A stretch of 64,000 nt of DNA. It comes from Trypanosoma brucei (lineage: Eukaryota). Each line of letters opens with the position of its first letter. Position 1 is the stretch's first letter. The position numbers were made by a program, and so were the translations under genes. Below the pieces are notes generated by a model. It saw nothing but the letters and a program-made list of their open reading frames with translations, did no database searches and was not told where the DNA came from. Of the stretch, positions 2,809 through 43,256 are shown piece by piece. The stretch covers positions 1,280,001-1,344,000 of the forward strand of contig CM000207.1 in NCBI GenBank assembly GCA_000002445.1, written 5' to 3'.

Positions 2809-4539
2809 TTACCAATCGTCATCATCGTCGGTTTTACGTTTCGGCGGAAGTTTTCCGGGAGCCGGTGGTGGCGGTGGCGGAGGAGGAGGAGGAGGCGCAA
2901 CCTTTGGTGGCGGTCCCTTCGGCGGTGGCGCTTTCGGAGGGGGTGGTGGAGGTGGCGGTGGTGGAACTCCACCCTTTTGTGGGGGTGCCGGTGCGTTTCT
3001 GTTTATCGCCATACCCTTCGATGGTCCAGAGGCGGGAGGGCGCCTGCCATGATCGTCGTCTTCATCCTCACCGTCAGAGTGCATTCCCAATATCCCTTTG
3101 CGACGATTCGCAAGCAGAGAAGAAAGCGCATCAAGGTTGCTCTTCGTTGCTGGTTTAGGGGCCGGTTTAACATCCGATTTGGCGGCCGGCTTCGCGGGTG
3201 CCTTTGCTTGCCCGGGTGGTGGTGGTGGAGGAGGCGGGGGTGGAGCCGGTGGTGCATTACCAATTGGTAGTCCTTTCGTCGCAGCTGCTCCGGGTAATGA
3301 AGGCATGGGTGGTGGCGCTTTTATTGGTGGAGGGGGTGGCGCCTTCATTTTTCCCGCAAACATTGGTGGCGGCGGCGGGGGTGGTGGTGGCGCTTTACCG
3401 GGTGGTCGCAATCCACCTGGCGGTGGGGGTGGTGGTGGAAGCCCACTTGGCACGAGAGCACGTGAGGACGGGCCACCTGCTGCATCAGGACCTGCGGTAA
3501 TCGCCAATGCCTCCTGACCTTTCTTTTTATTTCGAGTCGACCCACTGCCACTTCCAACTGAATCACCCCTTTCCCCAAGCCGTCGCTGCCCGCTTGGCGC
3601 GATGTTGTCCTGGTCCTCCAAACTGTAGGCATTCCACGCAACCTCCGCAATGCCTTCAAGGGGCAAGTTTTCTGGGAGATCGTCCATCAGATTCGCCACC
3701 TCCTCCATCAGCGGGACGAAGGCGTATTCATCAGTCGACGCTTGGGTCACGTAATCGCGGTGCACATCTGATGTACCAAGTCGCTGCTTGGTGGCTACGA
3801 CACGCTCTTGCCGCTGTTGCGTCAGCACATCCATTTCATGGTACTCTTTGTAGAGGTTCTCCCTAGTATTAAATAATAATAGCGAGCTGACGCTCATGAG
3901 ATGTGCCGGTAGTCTCCCAAGGCCGCGATCCACACCACTATGATAGCGCCACGTCGCACCAAGCGGCATTAAGCTCTTAACTGTTGCCTCCTGCAATGGA
4001 TGCTGCGGTTTCATTAACCGCTGCTCTGCTCCAGGGCAATCAAGGCGACGGACGGGCTTCGGATATGCATCCTCCCCTTCCTGGCCTCCAAGCTGCCATG
4101 GGTCGGAGCCGTTGCCGCTATCGCCCCCGCTACTGCCCACCACTGGTGATGCACCCGAATCATCTGCTTGAATGATTGCTGGCATGACATACGCCCTTTC
4201 TGGCACACAGCCTCGATCCTCACACGGTGCGCGCCCTATTGGAAGCGTGTAGTGTTTTTGTTTTGGAAATCGAACCCTACTCTTCACCACCATCGCCTCC
4301 CTACGTCCTTGAAGCTGCTCGACTTGATCAGCACAAACCGCGATGCGTCCCTGAAGTTGCTCCAGTGTTTCGCGTGACCGCTCAACAGCCTGTTCAATGT
4401 TACCAAAGACACGTTCGCTTGTTTGATCAAGCCGCCCAAGAGCCCTGATGACGGACAGCATCGACGCATACCCACCATTTGTCAAGGGAACCGGCAGAGT
4501 ATACCCATGTATGGGTGTCATAGTGGTCTCCTTGTACAT
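2809..4539 (-). CDS. proline-rich SCAR/WAVE-like actin nucleation-promoting factor candidate (576 aa)
   Basis: N-terminal segment 'LSVIRALGRLDQTSERVFGNIEQAVERSRETLEQLQGRIAVCADQVEQL' resembles the SCAR/WAVE homology domain ('IRQLGSLSKYAEDIFGELF...RVDRL...V.QL'). Several poly-Pro tracts (PPPPPPPPP) could act as profilin-binding sites. A WH2-like 'LDALSSLLANRRKGILG' is followed by an acidic stretch. The protein ends ...KRKTDDDDDW, an acidic tail with a C-terminal Trp as in VCA domains. Confidence 0.5.
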   Translation of the reverse strand: MYKETTMTPIHGYTLPVPLTNGGYASMLSVIRALGRLDQTSERVFGNIEQAVERSRETLEQLQGRIAVCADQVEQLQGRREAMVVKSRVRFPKQKHYTLPIGRAPCEDRGCVPERAYVMPAIIQADDSGASPVVGSSGGDSGNGSDPWQLGGQEGEDAYPKPVRRLDCPGAEQRLMKPQHPLQEATVKSLMPLGATWRYHSGVDRGLGRLPAHLMSVSSLLLFNTRENLYKEYHEMDVLTQQRQERVVATKQRLGTSDVHRDYVTQASTDEYAFVPLMEEVANLMDDLPENLPLEGIAEVAWNAYSLEDQDNIAPSGQRRLGERGDSVGSGSGSTRNKKKGQEALAITAGPDAAGGPSSRALVPSGLPPPPPPPGGLRPPGKAPPPPPPPPPMFAGKMKAPPPPPIKAPPPMPSLPGAAATKGLPIGNAPPAPPPPPPPPPPGQAKAPAKPAAKSDVKPAPKPATKSNLDALSSLLANRRKGILGMHSDGEDEDDDHGRRPPASGPSKGMAINRNAPAPPQKGGVPPPPPPPPPPKAPPPKGPPPKVAPPPPPPPPPPPAPGKLPPKRKTDDDDDW

Positions 4540-4900
4540 GGAATGTCAAAATATGACACTACAGTTCGCAAGCAATGAGGATAGTACGACCACCTTCCGC
4601 CTGGAATTTCTTCGCAAGGTTGGCCCCTCTGGTTCCCCTTTCCGCCAGTGGCAAGCACACATAATATCATCAAAAGATGGTCGGTATGTTAAATTGAGGG
4701 GGGGGGGCAAAGAGAGAGAGAGAGAGCGAGAAAAAAGGGGGAAAAATTAAACATAAATGCTAGCAAACACCCTGCGTTCCAACATGTGAGTCCAACAACG
4801 TTGCACCACAAGACGACAGACGCAAAAATCATTAAAAGGAACAGTTAAGCAGCAGAAAAGTAGAAATGAACGCTCAATCGAGCAAAAGAGCCGTGGTCGT

Positions 4901-5542
4901 TTAGGCCATGATGTTGTATGGGGTGATCTTACCCTTTGGTGTGATCAGCTTCACGTGGAGGCCGCGTTGTTGCAACTTCCCTGCGTCACGTAACTCCTCG
5001 TACTCATTTCGGAGGATGTTTGTGAAGCCCCAATATTTCGATATCACAATGATTTGCCTACCAGGGAACTTCATCTTAGCACGGCGAAGAGACTCCAGTG
5101 CCTGTGGGACGTATGTGTCCTTTGTCCTCATAGACAAGAGGATCTGACCAATCCGCACGCGGGCGCAGGTCCCATTCGGTTTGCCGTACGACTGCCGCAT
5201 GCCCGTCTGCAGACGATCGGCGCCAGCACACGAAAGCATTTTGTTGATGCGAAGTACGTGGAACGGATGGGCGCGGATACGCATGTGGAAACATTCCTTG
5301 TTGGCACGCTTCACCATATACTTGTTAGCCTGAATACGGGCAGCTTCCAATGCCTCAGATGAGATTTGCTCTAGTTCACGGGACACAACATGGACACACA
5401 CGGGGAACTCATCCACTGGCGCACGGCGCTTACCAATGTCGAAGGTGCGAATCCTCGGGTCCGGTACACCACGACAGAAGCGTGACTTAGGATACGGTTT
5501 GTTCTTGCAGAAGCGGTAGCAACGTGCGGGACGGCGAGCCAT
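4901..5542 (-). CDS. RPL10: 60S ribosomal protein L10 (QM/uL16), copy 1
   Basis: 213 aa beginning '[47 protein letters not shown]', the canonical eukaryotic L10/QM N-terminus. Conserved along its full length. Confidence 0.95.
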
Positions 5543-5568
5543 GACGAATCTTTTGGCCGATCAAACCA

Positions 5569-5640
5569 CTGCAGAAACAAGAAGTATAAGAAAGTACAGA
5601 CAAAGGAAAAAAAGGAAAGATGTGAGGAAAAAGTTATGTT
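5569..5640 (-). promoter_or_regulatory. predicted polypyrimidine tract + AG trans-splice (spliced-leader) acceptor region for RPL10 copy 1 (equivalent: 43165..43236 for copy 2)
   Basis: Minus-strand reading gives 'ctttttcctcacatctttcctttttttcctttgtctgtactttcttatacttcttgtttctgcag|tggtttgatcggcc...ATG'. A pyrimidine run followed by AG about 27 nt upstream of the ATG is the standard kinetoplastid arrangement. The exact AG used is unverified. Confidence 0.4.
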
Positions 5641-5792
5641 AACATCACAATGGATGGAGGATTCACTGTGCACGACTGAGACGGTGGGTCAACATTACGT
5701 GACTCACGTTTAACTTTCAGGCCATTATTTTTAAAAAGGAAATTAAGAAAAAACTTTTCACCTCGGTAATCGCTCACGAAAAGCACTCTCGA

Positions 5793-6359
5793 TCAGTTGG
5801 GATCCATCGTCAGTTCCATGATAGCATTGACGATATCTCCCTTGTTGTTCCGAAGGGCGCGGATTGCTCCAATGCGGTCCGTTTTGCCTTGTGCCATAAC
5901 CACAGCAATCTCCTTATCGTCGAATTCGCCTTCCACAATCTCGACATCGTCGGGAGTCTGTTTGCTCTCAGATGGGGCAGCTGCTGCAGGAGTTTCACCA
6001 GCAAGCTCAGAGGTTTCCTCTCCTGCAGTTCCCACCTCCTCCACAAGGGCGCCAGACACCGCGCGAGCTGCGGCTTCCTGCGTTTGCATCGTTGTGTCGC
6101 CAAGCTGAGCTTCACCAAAGATTAGGAATGTGTTGGTTCCTGGAAAGCGGTACACCTCGGGTTGGTTCACCACAAAAGAGAGCGCCGCACGTTTGCGAAT
6201 GTGTACCTTAGAGATGTTTGGCTCAGGTTTCAAACCCATCTTGGCCATAGCCTTTGCGTAGCGCTTGGATGGCTTGGAAGCCTGTTGAGTGTCAGCAGCT
6301 TCGAGGGTTGGGACCTCGTCGTCTTCCACTGGAGGGTTTTGAACATCGTTAGCGCTCAT
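5793..6359 (-). CDS. NACA: nascent polypeptide-associated complex alpha subunit (NAC-alpha), tandem copy A
   Basis: 188 aa. NAC domain 'KVHIRKRAALSFVVNQPEVYRFPGTNTFLIFGEAQ' and C-terminal UBA-like 'KTDRIGAIRALRNNKGDIVNAIMELT'. Confidence 0.9.
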   Translation of the reverse strand: MSANDVQNPPVEDDEVPTLEAADTQQASKPSKRYAKAMAKMGLKPEPNISKVHIRKRAALSFVVNQPEVYRFPGTNTFLIFGEAQLGDTTMQTQEAAARAVSGALVEEVGTAGEETSELAGETPAAAAPSESKQTPDDVEIVEGEFDDKEIAVVMAQGKTDRIGAIRALRNNKGDIVNAIMELTMDPN

Positions 6360-6760
6360 CGTGATGGTCCGGGTTACTGTTCAGATTGGATGTAGCGAAA
6401 GAAATGTAAGAAGGGAAAAGAAAAGTTGAAATGCGCATAAAACAGGGAGGGAGAAATCTAAAAGCAGACACGCAGAGAAAAACGAAGGAATGAGGCGAAT
6501 GTAGTAGCACAAACATTTTTATAATTTTTGTATCACTTACTCTTTTCTGTTATCACTGTATATTGTTCTCGCACATTCTTTCCTTCGTAACTTACAAGCA
6601 GGTGGCCACGGAAACACTCCTAGGCAGAACCCCACAAATCACTTCTGAGAGTCCACTTCAAATCTCATATTTTTTTCTTACAGTTTTCATTTCCCTCCAT
6701 CCCCCTTATGTCCTTATTGGGGGTTTCACTTACACTGTTGCTCACGAAAAGCACTCTCGA

Positions 6761-7327
6761 TCAGTTGGGATCCATCGTCAGTTCCATGATAGCATTGACG
6801 ATATCTCCCTTGTTGTTCCGAAGGGCGCGGATTGCTCCAATGCGGTCCGTTTTGCCTTGTGCCATAACCACAGCAATCTCCTTATCGTCGAATTCGCCTT
6901 CCACAATCTCGACATCGTCGGGAGTCTGTTTGCTCTCAGATGGGGCAGCTGCTGCAGGAGTTTCACCAGCAAGCTCAGAGGTTTCCTCTCCTGCAGTTCC
7001 CACCTCCTCCACAAGGGCGCCAGACACCGCGCGAGCTGCGGCTTCCTGCGTTTGCATCGTTGTGTCGCCAAGCTGAGCTTCACCAAAGATTAGGAATGTG
7101 TTGGTTCCTGGAAAGCGGTACACCTCGGGTTGGTTCACCACAAAAGAGAGCGCCGCACGTTTGCGAATGTGTACCTTAGAGATGTTTGGCTCAGGTTTCA
7201 AACCCATCTTGGCCATAGCCTTTGCGTAGCGCTTGGATGGCTTGGAAGCCTGTTGAGTGTCAGCAGCTTCGAGGGTTGGGACCTCGTCGTCTTCCACTGG
7301 AGGGTTTTGAACATCGTTAGCGCTCAT
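6761..7327 (-). CDS. NACA: nascent polypeptide-associated complex alpha subunit (NAC-alpha), tandem copy B
   Basis: Protein and DNA identical to copy A (identity block 6740..7443 = 5772..6475). Confidence 0.9.
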   Translation of the reverse strand: MSANDVQNPPVEDDEVPTLEAADTQQASKPSKRYAKAMAKMGLKPEPNISKVHIRKRAALSFVVNQPEVYRFPGTNTFLIFGEAQLGDTTMQTQEAAARAVSGALVEEVGTAGEETSELAGETPAAAAPSESKQTPDDVEIVEGEFDDKEIAVVMAQGKTDRIGAIRALRNNKGDIVNAIMELTMDPN

Positions 7328-8333
7328 CGTGATGGTCCGGGTTACTGTTCAGATTGGATGTAGCGAAAGAAATGTAAGAAGGGAAAAGAAAAGTTGAAAT
7401 GCGCATAAAACAGGGAGGGAGAAATCTAAAAGCAGACACGCAGTGGATAAATAATGTAAAGGAAGATGTGTATGCATGTAGATAAATTCGCTGATTCAAA
7501 TGTAAATATATAAGCAGAGGAAATTCCCCCTCCCTCTCCCCCGATTATAGCTGTCGTTGTCTCGTTTGTGGGATCATGCCGTAGATTGCGTTTGCAGGAC
7601 AAACACCCCTCATGCTTTTCATGAATGCAGCACTAGTCTTGTTATTATTAATATATATATATATATTGCATTCACAGCACAGGCAGGAACCAGGGTAAGA
7701 AATTTACTGATGCCAATGCTACAACATGACTAACTCGCCAAAGGTGAAACAACAGCATTTACCCCCCTTTTTGCTTCGCTCTCCTGCGTCGTCGTACTTC
7801 CCAGCATCTTTCCCGCTGCACGCCAATCGACTACCAATACGGGCGATGGTGTTGGAAAATAACTACAGAGGAATTCCCCTATTTACACGTTACTTAAACT
7901 GCGTTCGTGCCGCTGACCGTCATGATGAAGAAAAAAAATGTGTGCATTGTGTCACCGCTCCCAATGTATGTAGTGAAGTGTAACCGCCAACAACGAAACG
8001 TCAAACGAATGACTTGCTAACAGTGAAGAGAGTAGGATTTCATTCCGCCGCGAAGCCTTTTTTTCTTCTTCGTAGGGAAGATGATCGACACCAAAATATA
8101 TATAAATAAAGGATGCATGTTGAAAAGCGCATGCAACGCGTACTGCACGGCACTTAGGTACTATTGTATGGAAAACATCTGTTCCCCATAGACAACAGTT
8201 CCAGGAGGGGGAAACCGTCTGACGCGATCCAAGTTGTTCTTGACGCGCAGATGTCTATTCGTTCGCTTCACGTAACATTTATGTAGTTTTCACCTCACTG
8301 TGGAGGTACTCAGACAACAATGCAGAGAACACA

Positions 8334-8336
<3 letters not shown>

Positions 8337-8368
<32 letters not shown>
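8337..8368. repeat. (TA)16 microsatellite; similar (TA)n at 245-258, 9721-9746, 25681-25706, 26518-26538, 31283-31300, 35476-35500
   Basis: Seen directly. Confidence 0.95.
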
Positions 8369-8371
<3 letters not shown>

Positions 8372-8411
8372 ACTCTTTATTACTGCAACGTAAAATTTAA
8401 AGTGGCCATGA

Positions 8412-9704
8412 TCACACCACTTCATCAGCCCCCCGTTTCCTCTGCTGATGTTCGCCCGGTACTGTTTCACACCTAAAGCTGTTAGATGCACCCGTGTTGC
8501 GTGGAGACAGTGGTGTGGTTGCCCCACGTTCAGCATCGTCTTCCTCATTCGCAACCCCAAACAACATGGCTTCGTATACCCGAGATGCGGTGCAAAACAT
8601 GATGACTGATGCAAGAAATAAGGAGATAAAGATGACTTGTATGGGTATCACCGCAACAGCTGCTGAAGGATTAAAGCCGTCAGTCCATTTGTTAATCTCA
8701 ACATTGGCTTTTGCCGCAATCATGCATGCCACATATATCATACTGCTGTAAACCACGAAAAGAAACGCAGAGGTACTCTTCTGAGATGCTTGCTGGTTTG
8801 GCTGCTCCACTTTGCTACAGATCATGCAGAAACATAAGTGAAGCAGTGCCTTCAAACCAAGACACGCAATGAGTGGGGAGAACACAATCCAGAAGGAAAG
8901 TGGTTCGTCCTTACTTTCCTCACTCTTTTGCATAGCACGAAGCATTAGAAGCGTGAAGAAGGCAATAGCACACCCCTCCTCAAATAACACCATGACAACA
9001 AACAGACAATATTTCTTGCGCGAAAACGTCACCTCTCCACTGCCATCTTCGGAATTCTGCACAAACCTTGACGGGAACAGATGAGGTATGATATGAAGGA
9101 CACGCACTGCGTAAAACGCTATGGCCGGCGAAAGGGCAACAGGCCATGACAGCGCACCGCACAACCCAGCAACGAATGTTGCAATACTACCAACGAATAG
9201 TAGGATTTCAACCCCGACACATACACATAAAAAGTCCAACTGTTTGATTCCAGCAGCCAACAAACCTAAAGCGAGTAATATGGGGGGTGCCAGGGCAATC
9301 CAAAGAGGAATAAACACCACGGGCCATTTCCAACTCAATTCGTAGTCCAATCGAACAACAACAAGCTCTAACTGGAGTAACAGCAGTAGTATCAACATCA
9401 TAACAAGGAAACACAGGAAACGGAAGGCGGACGGGTTCACAGGTACGTTCATTTCATTAAGTTTGTTTAGGGTAGCAACGCCCTCCCTTCCAAAGGTGTT
9501 GTACGTGCGTCGTTGCTGCTCATCGCTAAGGATGCTGTACGCCTCTTGCAAACGAGTGAACTGCTCTGTGGTTGTGCCATCCGTTTTATCGGGGTGAAGA
9601 ATGAGTGCTAGTCGATGGTACGCACGCTTAATTTCCTGTGGCGTGGCATTTTCGTTCACTTCCATAAGTGTGTACAGAGAGCCACTGCATTTTCGACCCA
9701 GCAT
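8412..9704 (-). CDS. J-domain (DnaJ-like) polytopic membrane protein
   Basis: N-terminal J domain 'SLYTLMEVNENATPQEIKRAYHRLALILHPDKT' with the HPD tripeptide. It is followed by at least 6 long hydrophobic stretches that are predicted TM helices. Confidence 0.8.
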   Translation of the reverse strand: MLGRKCSGSLYTLMEVNENATPQEIKRAYHRLALILHPDKTDGTTTEQFTRLQEAYSILSDEQQRRTYNTFGREGVATLNKLNEMNVPVNPSAFRFLCFLVMMLILLLLLQLELVVVRLDYELSWKWPVVFIPLWIALAPPILLALGLLAAGIKQLDFLCVCVGVEILLFVGSIATFVAGLCGALSWPVALSPAIAFYAVRVLHIIPHLFPSRFVQNSEDGSGEVTFSRKKYCLFVVMVLFEEGCAIAFFTLLMLRAMQKSEESKDEPLSFWIVFSPLIACLGLKALLHLCFCMICSKVEQPNQQASQKSTSAFLFVVYSSMIYVACMIAAKANVEINKWTDGFNPSAAVAVIPIQVIFISLFLASVIMFCTASRVYEAMLFGVANEEDDAERGATTPLSPRNTGASNSFRCETVPGEHQQRKRGADEVV

Positions 9705-25557: not shown

Positions 25558-27685
25558 TTAACGCTACTGACTTGCACCACAATCTTCATGGAGGGCGCAC
25601 GGGCAAGGAATATATATACATAAAGGAGGATAAAAAGGGAATCAGAAAAGAGAATGAATGAAAGATTTCTGCTTTACAAAGATATATATATATATATATA
25701 TACATATATACATATACAAACATTTGTTCGAATGGATAAACGAAAGAGAGGGGGAAACGAAAGTAACCGAAAAACAAAAAAGAGGGAAGAATAGCAACGA
25801 TAACTATCTTCCCGAGAGCGCGTACAAAAAAAAAAGGTAACTCTTGGCCCACAGCAATAAAGGAGTGAAATGGAAAGTATCCCAAACTTGAAAAGGGGGA
25901 GAAGTGGAGGTTAAGCAGCTCAAAAAGAAAAAAAAACATGAAGTACACACATGTGCCCACTTTTCATGTTTTCCCCATCTCAGCCAACCGCCAGATAGAG
26001 GTTCCAACTCTCACTTTTGTTCTCCCTTTTTCTTTTTTAAAAAACTTTTGTCTCTTGAACTGTTTTTTGTCCTTATTTTTTTTTCTTTTGTCTTGTCGTT
26101 ACATCTCACTAACGCATCTGACCTTTCGCCCTCCTGACGCCTTCACAACTCCATACTTTATTTCCAATATGTTTGATTTAACGCCATGGCAAACATCTGC
26201 TGTCAAAAGAAATACAGATGTGCGGTGGTATAAAGAGATAAGGAAATACGTCGATCAGACGACAGAAAAACGAAAAATAGAAAAAGCTTCCTGCGGCTTT
26301 GTGGTACCCCACAATCAAATATAAACATATAACTGTATCTCGGTTAGTAAGATTCCCGCATGGAGTTCACCGAATTATCAAAAGGGTAAAAAAAAAAACA
26401 TGCTGCTCCACCATGCATAGTAGTACGCCTGATTCTGCCTTTTCCTTGTTGTTGTTGTTGCCGCTTTTGTTTCATTACTTTTGATTTGGCATCGCTGCCT
26501 TCCCACCGATGTATAACATATATATATATATATATATATTCGTTGTTTTGTTCAATATTTGACGGCGTTATCAACCTAGAAAAAAAAATTCCTTCCACTT
26601 CCCTCCTTGTATTATAATGACACCATGTGAGGCGGCATGAAAATAAGAGGTATTGTTTCATCAAAATTAACACATCAAAAAAGGAAGGGGTATCATTCAG
26701 AGGAAATATAGAGAACAGAACTGCAACTAAACTAAAATTAATTGCGAAGGCAAAAATATATAACCAAACAAATACATATATCATCTGACTCATTTGTTTT
26801 CTCCCCTTTCCCCCCTCTTCCATCTCCTTTTCCACTGCGTTCACGAAGAGAACGCGATATGGAATTTTTTTTTTAAAAATGGTTGAAACCAAAACATAAA
26901 GCCAGGTAAAGTGACTTACGTCCCTCACAAATGGTTTTTCTCCCCCTTTTTTTTTCATTTCAAGTAAAACAACAAATTCAGTTCCGTTGTGGAACAGAAA
27001 GGTATAATAAACAAACAGGGGATGTAAAGCACACATCATAATAATCATAATAATTTTTTTAAAAAAAAGTGGTAGGACATATATGCTGACAATGAAGAAT
27101 GGTAACGAGAACGTTACCATTGCTAAATCTGCGAATGTTATGGGCAACAACCGGAAGGATAAACAAAAAAAAAAAGCAGTAATAGAAACCGGACAAAAAC
27201 TAAAGCAAATGAAAAAAAAGGTATATGGGATGCCAAACATGGATAAATTACACACGTTTCAGGTGCTTGAGAGCGAACAAAAAGAAAAACAGAGAAACCA
27301 AAAACTACAATAACAAACAATGTAGAATCACACGGATGCAGCCGACAACAACAATAATAATAATAAACTAAATTCAGAAACCACAGTCGGTGGCCGTATC
27401 TTTTGTTCTTCTCAGAACAGAAATTAATCCCGTGAGGTTTCCGTCGCAGCCGCCGCGGGAAAAGTGCGCCAAATCCTCTTCCTTCGCACGGTGACACGAA
27501 CGAATCCACCTCTAGTGCTGAATGGGGTTCCACTTGAGTAATACATTCCTTACATTCACTTCCAAAAAGGTGTGGAGTCACGCCTCTGCGCTCCCTGTTG
27601 CCATTTCTTTTTTCGTTCTTTTTTTTCCCCCCCTCCTCCCCAACACGCAAACCCAACTGGCCCACTTTACACCAACGACAAAAAA

Positions 27686-42010: not shown

Positions 42011-42494
42011 ATTTCGTCAACCGCCAGATTTTCTGCGTCAACGAAAGCAAGGACTATTGCTCGCCCTCTCTCAGCACCCCCTCCCCTTTACTTCAAATAC
42101 TCGTGTGTATATGCCTTCTTTTTCCGCTCCTTATTATTGTTAGTCTAAACTTCAAAAATAAAATAATACACCCCTCCACTTTACTCGTTACTTCGCTACG
42201 CGGGTCCTCAACCACTAAAATACGTCTCCTCACCCATGAAAAGAATGGCGATGCAACAAGCGCACAGAAAAGAAAATAAAGAAATGGCAAAAACAATTCC
42301 GTATACTCGAACAAGATGATCACATCCATAAAAAGTCACCGAAGCAGAAACTGAGACGCACAAAACAGGTGTGCAACGCTTCACTCTGCTATAATTTTTT
42401 TTTGTTACTTTGGCGTAATAACCTTTAAAAAAACATAAAGACACAAACATTAAACAACAAATGTGGTTTCCGGGGCTGCGCTCGTCCTAAAACT

Positions 42495-43256
42495 GTTTAG
42501 GCCATGATGTTGTATGGGGTGATCTTACCCTTTGGTGTGATCAGCTTCACGTGGAGGCCGCGTTGTTGCAACTTCCCTGCGTCACGTAACTCCTCGTACT
42601 CATTTCGGAGGATGTTTGTGAAGCCCCAATATTTCGATATCACAATGATTTGCCTACCAGGGAACTTCATCTTAGCACGGCGAAGAGACTCCAGTGCCTG
42701 TGGGACGTATGTGTCCTTTGTCCTCATAGACAAGAGGATCTGACCAATCCGCACGCGGGCGCAGGTCCCATTCGGTTTGCCGTACGACTGCCGCATGCCC
42801 GTCTGCAGACGATCGGCGCCAGCACACGAAAGCATTTTGTTGATGCGAAGTACGTGGAACGGATGGGCGCGGATACGCATGTGGAAACATTCCTTGTTGG
42901 CACGCTTCACCATATACTTGTTAGCCTGAATACGGGCAGCTTCCAATGCCTCAGATGAGATTTGCTCTAGTTCACGGGACACAACATGGACACACACGGG
43001 GAACTCATCCACTGGCGCACGGCGCTTACCAATGTCGAAGGTGCGAATCCTCGGGTCCGGTACACCACGACAGAAGCGTGACTTAGGATACGGTTTGTTC
43101 TTGCAGAAGCGGTAGCAACGTGCGGGACGGCGAGCCATGACGAATCTTTTGGCCGATCAAACCACTGCAGAAACAAGAAGTATAAGAAAGTACAGACAAA
43201 GGAAAAAAAGGAAAGATGTGAGGAAAAAGTTATGTTAACATCACAATGGATGGAGG
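42495..43256. repeat. second copy of the 762-bp RPL10 duplicate
   Basis: See 4899..5660. Confidence 0.9.
42497..43138 (-). CDS. RPL10: 60S ribosomal protein L10 (QM/uL16), copy 2
   Basis: Protein identical to copy 1. DNA identical across 42495..43256 = 4899..5660. Confidence 0.95.

Follow-up and report, generated by a model that had tools for sequence, protein, structure and literature searches.

In fungi, syntenic but non-adjacent ribosomal protein (RP) paralogs have been homogenized in their coding sequences repeatedly and independently in each species, and their noncoding sequences have diverged (Mullis et al. 2020, PMC6993855). These duplicates, which stem from whole-genome duplication or retroposition, are usually found on separate chromosomes. 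Because their introns escape conversion, a cDNA donor was proposed, and their retention was read as an increase in dosage (PMC6993855). In plants, concerted evolution of RP paralogs by repeated gene conversion is likewise established (PMC4679983).

Within the trypanosomatids, the β-tubulin genes of Leishmania occupy separate syntenic loci with "conserved and concerted" coding regions, and their noncoding regions are distinct for each locus while the isoforms cluster by species (Jackson, Vaughan & Gull 2006, PMC1533823). Those loci are on different chromosomes, include arrays, and evolve in concert in some species only. The tandem arrays of Trypanosoma brucei combine conserved position with species-wise clustering, and their coding sequences (CDS) and untranslated regions (UTRs) have different histories (Jackson 2007, PMC1855330); unequal crossing-over was invoked there for the invariant arrays, and ectopic conversion was described as "very rare". 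Most RP genes of Leishmania are duplicated, and RP paralogs with identical CDS and divergent UTRs were studied experimentally for the genes S16 and L13a (Borges et al. 2024, PMC11098316). In L. major such paralogs are differently expressed and compensate for each other's loss; how their identity is maintained was not addressed in that study. More template for an abundant protein is the standard explanation of gene duplicates in trypanosomatids (PMC1855330). Our literature search returned no paper on the concerted evolution of trypanosomatid RP paralogs or on the RPL10 pair described here.

Results

Two identical blocks in one polycistronic unit

The window is the whole 64,000-nt stretch of T. 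brucei DNA that was analyzed (GCA_000002445.1, contig CM000207.1, positions 1,280,001 to 1,344,000 of the forward strand). It carries two homogenized blocks of 762 bp, both on the minus strand: copy A (4899..5660), in the order NAC / RPL10 / WASH-like, and copy B (42495..43256), in the order adenylate kinase / RPL10 / DnaJ. The two blocks matched at all 762 of 762 positions, with 0 mismatches, and the match could not be extended by a single base at either end. The edges of each block lay 2 bp beyond the stop codon and 118 bp ahead of the ATG. In the 200 and 1000 bp adjoining the blocks, ungapped identity was 25–28%, which is the random level. The copies were spaced 37,596 bp apart from start to start. 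The first-pass annotation of this DNA had described two perfectly identical blocks 37.6 kb apart, identical at synonymous sites as well, with edges 2 bp after the stop and 118 bp before the ATG and with unrelated sequence on both sides; self-comparison together with the ORF coordinates reproduced each of these points exactly. An exact 762-bp repeat within 64 kb cannot have arisen by chance.

Self-BLASTN of the window recovered two long repeats only, the RPL10 pair and a tandem pair of NAC-α genes. The only other self-matches were (TA)n microsatellites at 8331..8372 and 25676..25719. Scans of the window for Rfam families and tRNAs gave no matches. All long ORFs of the window are on the minus strand, which makes the two RPL10 genes direct repeats within a single polycistronic unit, and approximately 18 ORFs of at least 150 aa separate copy A from copy B.

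The repeated gene encodes RPL10/uL16. The CDS of copy A (4901..5542, minus strand) specifies 213 aa plus the stop, and that of copy B (42497..43138, minus strand; 213 aa) is the same at every site. The ORF encodes a full-length Ribosomal_L16/L10e protein (PF00252, E = 8.1e-34, 116.9 bits against a cut-off of 27.9), and the protein is 67–90% identical over 97–100% of its length to kinetoplastid and fungal RPL10. With a profile score above the curated threshold and similarity over the full length, the gene belongs to the uL16/RPL10 (L10e, QM) family, in agreement with its database name in the Trypanozoon group, including T. brucei TREU927 (60S ribosomal protein L10, putative; EAN76820.1/EAN76845.1). 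The GC content at third codon positions (GC3) of RPL10 was 0.63, the highest in the window, where the other ORFs ranged from 0.48 to 0.60. A high GC3 is compatible with codon selection for high expression (PMC5896881) and equally compatible with GC-biased conversion (PMC1855330); our data cannot separate the two.

The neighbors of copy A have features of their own. Directly upstream is the NAC-α tandem pair, two minus-strand repeats of 704 bp with perfect identity (5772..6475 and 6740..7443) separated by a unique spacer of 264 bp. Each encodes a protein of 188 aa with PF01849 and a UBA domain. The NAC-α block begins at −116, takes in a polypyrimidine tract, an AG, and the CDS, and ends at +21, an architecture like that of the RPL10 block, and the pair fits directly into the tandem-array class of Jackson 2007 (PMC1855330). 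Leishmania also has a tandem NAC pair at locus A (contig L021, 6589..7107 and 8423..8941), with a block of 606 bp, 99.67% identical, from −33 to +54; T. cruzi, T. theileri, and T. melophagium have one NAC gene only at this locus. In T. equiperdum (CZPT02001826.1; L001 8850..9771) one NAC-α gene was found, compared with two in the window, in T. b. gambiense, and in GCA_003543875.1, which reflects either a collapsed tandem repeat or a real difference in copy number. Downstream of copy A lies a gene for a proline-rich protein of 576 aa (2809..4539, minus strand) with the WAHD domain of the WASH complex (PF11945, E = 1.5e-30), whose position is conserved across trypanosomatids.

Both loci are syntenic across trypanosomatids

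The gene order is DnaJ-TM / NAC / RPL10 / WASH-like / TRAPPC13 at locus A and CLC channel ... adenylate kinase / RPL10 / DnaJ / RING protein at locus B. Exact-protein look-up recovered both loci in T. b. gambiense (37,564 bp apart; FN554972.1, which we take to be chromosome 9) and in GCA_003543875.1 (37,524 bp apart), and locus A in T. equiperdum. Both loci, with matching neighbors, were also present in T. melophagium, in T. theileri, in three T. cruzi assemblies (those with the prefixes PRFA and PRFC being presumably strains Dm28c and TCC), and in Leishmania, where they are 68.7 kb apart on chromosome 4 (CP029503.1 and LR812937.1 are presumably chromosome 4 of L. donovani and L. infantum). 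In T. vivax, RPL10 was found at locus B (L017 11089..11726, SOPI01000703.1), where a frameshift, probably due to misassembly, interrupts it and where the annotation lacks it. In Bodo saltans, RPL10 occurs once, among unrelated neighbors, and therefore does not reveal which of the two loci is ancestral. Thus, the paralogs occupy orthologous positions across species, and because both syntenic loci occur in distant relatives, the duplication predates the split between Trypanosoma and Leishmania.

This distribution bears on the alternative that the first-pass annotation had offered beside ongoing conversion, namely a very recent duplication. The 762-bp segment would then have been copied within the T. 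brucei lineage so lately that no mutation has accumulated. A newly made duplicate would be expected to have perfect identity and abrupt edges. The same two loci with the same neighbors are nevertheless found in T. cruzi, T. theileri, T. melophagium, and Leishmania, and their flanks are orthologous between species; the same two sites would have had to receive inserts independently at least five times, which is not credible. The synteny refutes the recent duplication as it was proposed, and we regard its probability as extremely small.

An artefact of assembly or polishing, by which one real copy was pasted into a second place or used to correct it, was also considered. Exact repeats below the read length are typically prone to collapse or over-correction, and the T. 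equiperdum contig seems to have collapsed the neighboring NAC tandem pair. Against an artefact, independent assemblies of the T. brucei group contain the RPL10 pair at spacings of 37,596, 37,564, and 37,524 bp and with small assembly-specific differences, and the arrangement recurs in four other species. The probability that the identity is artefactual is close to nil.

The RPL10 block clusters by species and the flanks cluster by locus

Differences between the paralogs within a genome were few or absent over the 642 nt of the CDS: 0 in the window genome, 1 in T. b. gambiense, 0 in GCA_003543875.1, 0 in T. melophagium, 0 in T. theileri, 0, 0, and 3 in the three T. cruzi assemblies, and 0 in each of three Leishmania assemblies. 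Between species, the same 642 nt differed at 32 positions (T. melophagium vs. T. theileri), 91–96 positions (T. cruzi vs. T. melophagium and T. theileri), 120–127 positions (T. brucei vs. other trypanosomes), and 144 positions (Leishmania vs. T. brucei). Thus, the examination of orthologous loci in relatives that the first-pass annotation had recommended showed paralogs homogenized within genomes and 5–22% diverged between species. At four-fold degenerate sites, T. brucei differed from the other trypanosomes at 50–54 of approximately 95 sites, whereas its own paralogs differed at 0 of 104.

The flanks showed the opposite grouping. Between T. melophagium and T. theileri, the 5′ flank was 55% identical for A–A comparisons and 46% for B–B, and only 17–39% for A–B; the corresponding values for the 3′ flank were 61%, 72%, and 28–40%. 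The CDS of the same two species was 100% identical within and 95% identical between species. Flanks also clustered by locus between the T. brucei subspecies and between the T. cruzi strains, with A–B comparisons at background level. The paralogs were therefore closer to each other within a genome than to their orthologs, at synonymous and noncoding sites as well, and orthology by locus resumed just outside the tract. Species-clustered blocks inside locus-clustered flanks are the classic signature of interlocus gene conversion.

These comparisons also bear on whether an ancient duplication could have stayed identical through purifying and codon-usage selection alone, with no exchange between the copies. 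RPL10 is highly conserved (86–90% protein identity across kinetoplastids), its GC3 tops the window, and purifying selection and codon bias do slow divergence, which is a counterpoint to conversion. Yet approximately half of the four-fold sites differ between orthologs and none between paralogs, and the two T. brucei copies agree throughout the noncoding 118 nt that precede the ATG, a segment unalignable between species. Since synonymous sites and these 118 nt were homogenized too, selection alone is insufficient, and we consider it a highly improbable account. The strain-specific variants found in both paralogs, described below, argue against it as well.

Signs of recent conversion

Three linked variants of the polypyrimidine tract, at window positions 5612, 5610, and 5606, were compared within the T. 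brucei group. The haplotype was T,T,- in both copies of the window genome and C,C,+T in both copies of GCA_003543875.1. T. b. gambiense was split, with C,C,+T at copy A and T,T,- at copy B. One polymorphism thus occurs at both loci, and two strains have become fixed for it in opposite directions. T. cruzi gives an independent parallel: variants specific to a strain were common to both paralogs, for example at CDS position 192 and at several flank sites, and a site 30 nt past the stop remained A-specific or B-specific in all three assemblies. Polymorphisms were therefore shared between paralogs and homogenized in different directions in different strains. Judging from these haplotypes, gene conversion at RPL10 is still active in the T. 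brucei group.

Edges of the homogenized block

Relative to the ATG and the stop codon, the homogenized block extended from −118 to +2 in T. brucei, from −114 to +84 in T. melophagium, from −68 to +62 in T. theileri (with mismatches near the ends), from −140 to between +170 and +180 in T. cruzi, and from −11 to +52 in Leishmania. Its only constant across lineages was that the entire CDS lies inside. The first-pass annotation had called the identity sharply bounded to the CDS and 5′ flank; this is real in T. brucei, but the boundary is not fixed, since the edges vary by lineage, so that the sharp edge at the stop codon is a state of T. brucei and no built-in feature. All assemblies of the T. brucei group had the same edges, and because of this the limit of the tract is not separable from the limit of homology. 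The likeliest reading is that conversion reaches only as far as homology survives. Selection and conversion together would retain homology in the CDS, and indels and substitutions would remove it from the flanks at positions specific to each lineage.

Sequences upstream and downstream of the CDS

In sense order, the upstream 118 nt consist of approximately 27 mixed bases, a pyrimidine-rich tract of approximately 63 nt, AG, 26 nt, and the ATG. A polypyrimidine tract, AG, and a short 5′ UTR are the usual layout of a trypanosome trans-splice acceptor. In copy A, the predicted 5′ UTR of 26 nt (5543..5568, minus strand) starts with the TGGTTTGATC motif, and the predicted AG acceptor (5570-5569) and polypyrimidine tract span 5569..5633 on the same strand, with the pyrimidine-rich part at about 5571..5633. 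In copy B, the corresponding elements occupy 43139..43229 (minus strand), with a predicted 5′ UTR at 43139..43164, a predicted AG at 43166-43165, and a pyrimidine-rich part at about 43167..43229. Use of these splice sites is predicted from the DNA. The predicted RPL10 5′ UTR fits the median of 22 nt for the 5′ UTRs of T. brucei RP mRNAs (PMC4845500).

The upstream 118 nt are the same in both T. brucei copies and, between species, are unalignable except for a motif of 10 nt, AG|(G)TGGTTT(G/A)TC, which directly follows the predicted AG acceptor (5561..5570 and 43157..43166, minus strand). T. brucei, T. vivax, T. cruzi, T. theileri, and T. melophagium all have it where the RPL10 5′ UTR begins, and it was absent from Leishmania. 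Within the window, AGTGGTTTG occurred at the two RPL10 copies only. The conserved motif after the AG may be a control element of the 5′ UTR.

A Logan contig (L006 1..2670, run ERR7929159) carries RPL10 with the 3′ flank of copy B. From 24 nt upstream of the ATG, it continues into unrelated sequence in which an ORF for an RRM-domain protein runs in the opposite direction; close to the junction there are two base differences. We ruled it out as a source of a spliced-leader junction, since RPL10-B is joined there at −24 to the unrelated RRM-protein gene. The contig is probably a chimera, or else a rearrangement or an engineered locus.

The composition of the block bears on the nature of the donor. 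Conversion through a cDNA of the mature mRNA, as for fungal RP paralogs, where homogenization is limited to exon sequence (PMC6993855), would be helped by the abundance of RPL10 mRNA, and the Leishmania block (−11 to +52) probably lies inside the mature mRNA. The T. brucei block, on the other hand, includes approximately 90 nt upstream of the predicted AG, which trans-splicing would remove, and leaves out the 3′ UTR, a component of the mRNA; the blocks of T. cruzi and T. melophagium also include the polypyrimidine tract, and in the trypanosomes all or most of the 3′ UTR lies outside. Thus, with the acceptor as predicted rather than mapped, the homogenized segment is not confined to the mature transcript, and we consider a cDNA donor very unlikely.

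Downstream, the intergenic region specific to copy A (4540..4898, minus strand), with the RPL10-A 3′ UTR and the splice signals of the WASH-like gene, is unrelated to the one specific to copy B (42011..42494, minus strand), with the RPL10-B 3′ UTR and the splice signals of DnaJ. The copy A region is orthologous (90%) to the matching flank of T. b. gambiense. Within it, a (CT)n run followed by approximately 11 C (4690..4750, minus strand) probably contributes to the polypyrimidine tract that serves trans-splicing of the WASH-like mRNA. The downstream intergenic lengths are only 361 bp (A) and 486 bp (B), and therefore both RPL10 3′ UTRs must be short. The T. brucei copies thus have a common splice signal and 5′ UTR and separate 3′ UTRs, identical coding sequences being followed by unrelated 3′ UTRs.

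Discussion

Comparison among genomes makes it very probable that the RPL10 pair is an ancient duplication whose copies have been kept identical by recurrent interlocus (ectopic) gene conversion. Ongoing conversion was one of the options in the first-pass annotation, and it is strongly supported by the synteny of the loci, the species-wise block, the locus-wise flanks, and the common polymorphisms. We infer conversion from these comparisons, not from a directly observed event. All assemblies are haploid consensus sequences of diploid genomes, in which allelic and paralogous variation are not fully separable.

The duplication was already present in the common ancestor of Trypanosoma and Leishmania. 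Since then, one copy would repeatedly have templated repair of the other through homologous recombination of a non-crossover type. Were the copies to cross over, the genes in the intervening 37 kb would be lost or duplicated, an outcome presumably removed by selection; because many genes lie between the copies, crossovers would have to be rare or selected against. Unequal crossing-over, by which a tandem array can be homogenized, is excluded as the mechanism because the copies are not adjacent and lie 37.6 kb apart with many genes between them. A survey of T. brucei tandem arrays in which ectopic conversion was "very rare" (PMC1855330) speaks against our reading of the pair.

The pair would provide a double dose of a single protein where gene-specific promoters are lacking, a benefit in dosage that we suggest from the arrangement. 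Differential regulation through the two 3′ UTRs, the scenario of the first-pass annotation, is plausible in view of the Leishmania RP paralogs that are differently expressed and compensate for each other (PMC11098316). More tentatively, conversion may have continued without interruption since before the split of Trypanosoma and Leishmania, which would be unusually long-lived for dispersed single-copy loci; the lineage-specific edges might reflect more than decay, in that selection could keep the 3′ UTRs outside the tract for paralog-specific post-transcriptional control or dosage compensation, and this could be a general design of trypanosomatid RP genes that awaits systematic description. We regard this wider proposal as possible, with the odds against it.

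The RPL10 pair is a clean, bounded example of interlocus conversion in an organism where homologous recombination has been studied mainly for antigenic variation. With fixed unique flanks and edges known to the base in several species, it could be used to measure the rate and tract length of ectopic conversion in core chromosomal DNA. In practice, reads from the CDS are not assignable to a copy, and only the 3′ flanks (4540..4898 and 42011..42494) distinguish RPL10 A from B; RNAi or CRISPR reagents directed against the CDS hit both copies. No general view is changed by the pair.

Among the described systems, the fungal RP paralogs have in common with the RPL10 pair syntenic and non-adjacent positions, coding sequences homogenized independently in each species, diverged noncoding sequences, and a reading of retention as increased dosage (PMC6993855). 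The RPL10 pair differs in that its copies are 37.6 kb apart in one polycistronic unit, and in that the blocks of T. brucei, T. cruzi, and T. melophagium contain the polypyrimidine tract that precedes the splice site, which points to a donor of genomic DNA. The β-tubulin genes of Leishmania (PMC1533823) resemble it in having concerted coding regions within locus-distinct noncoding regions; unlike them, the RPL10 genes lie on one chromosome, with no more than one gene at each locus, and were homogenized in every genome examined from Leishmania to T. brucei. The tandem arrays of T. brucei (PMC1855330) share with it the conserved position, the clustering by species, and the separate histories of CDS and UTRs, but RPL10 copies are not in tandem. 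Identical CDS with divergent UTRs also characterize the RP paralogs of Leishmania (PMC11098316), whereas the two RPL10 copies of T. brucei have the same 5′ UTR and splice signal and differ on the 3′ side alone. The RPL10 pair is thus an unusually clear further case of a known phenomenon, and its main merits are that it reaches from Leishmania to T. brucei and that its edges are defined to the base.
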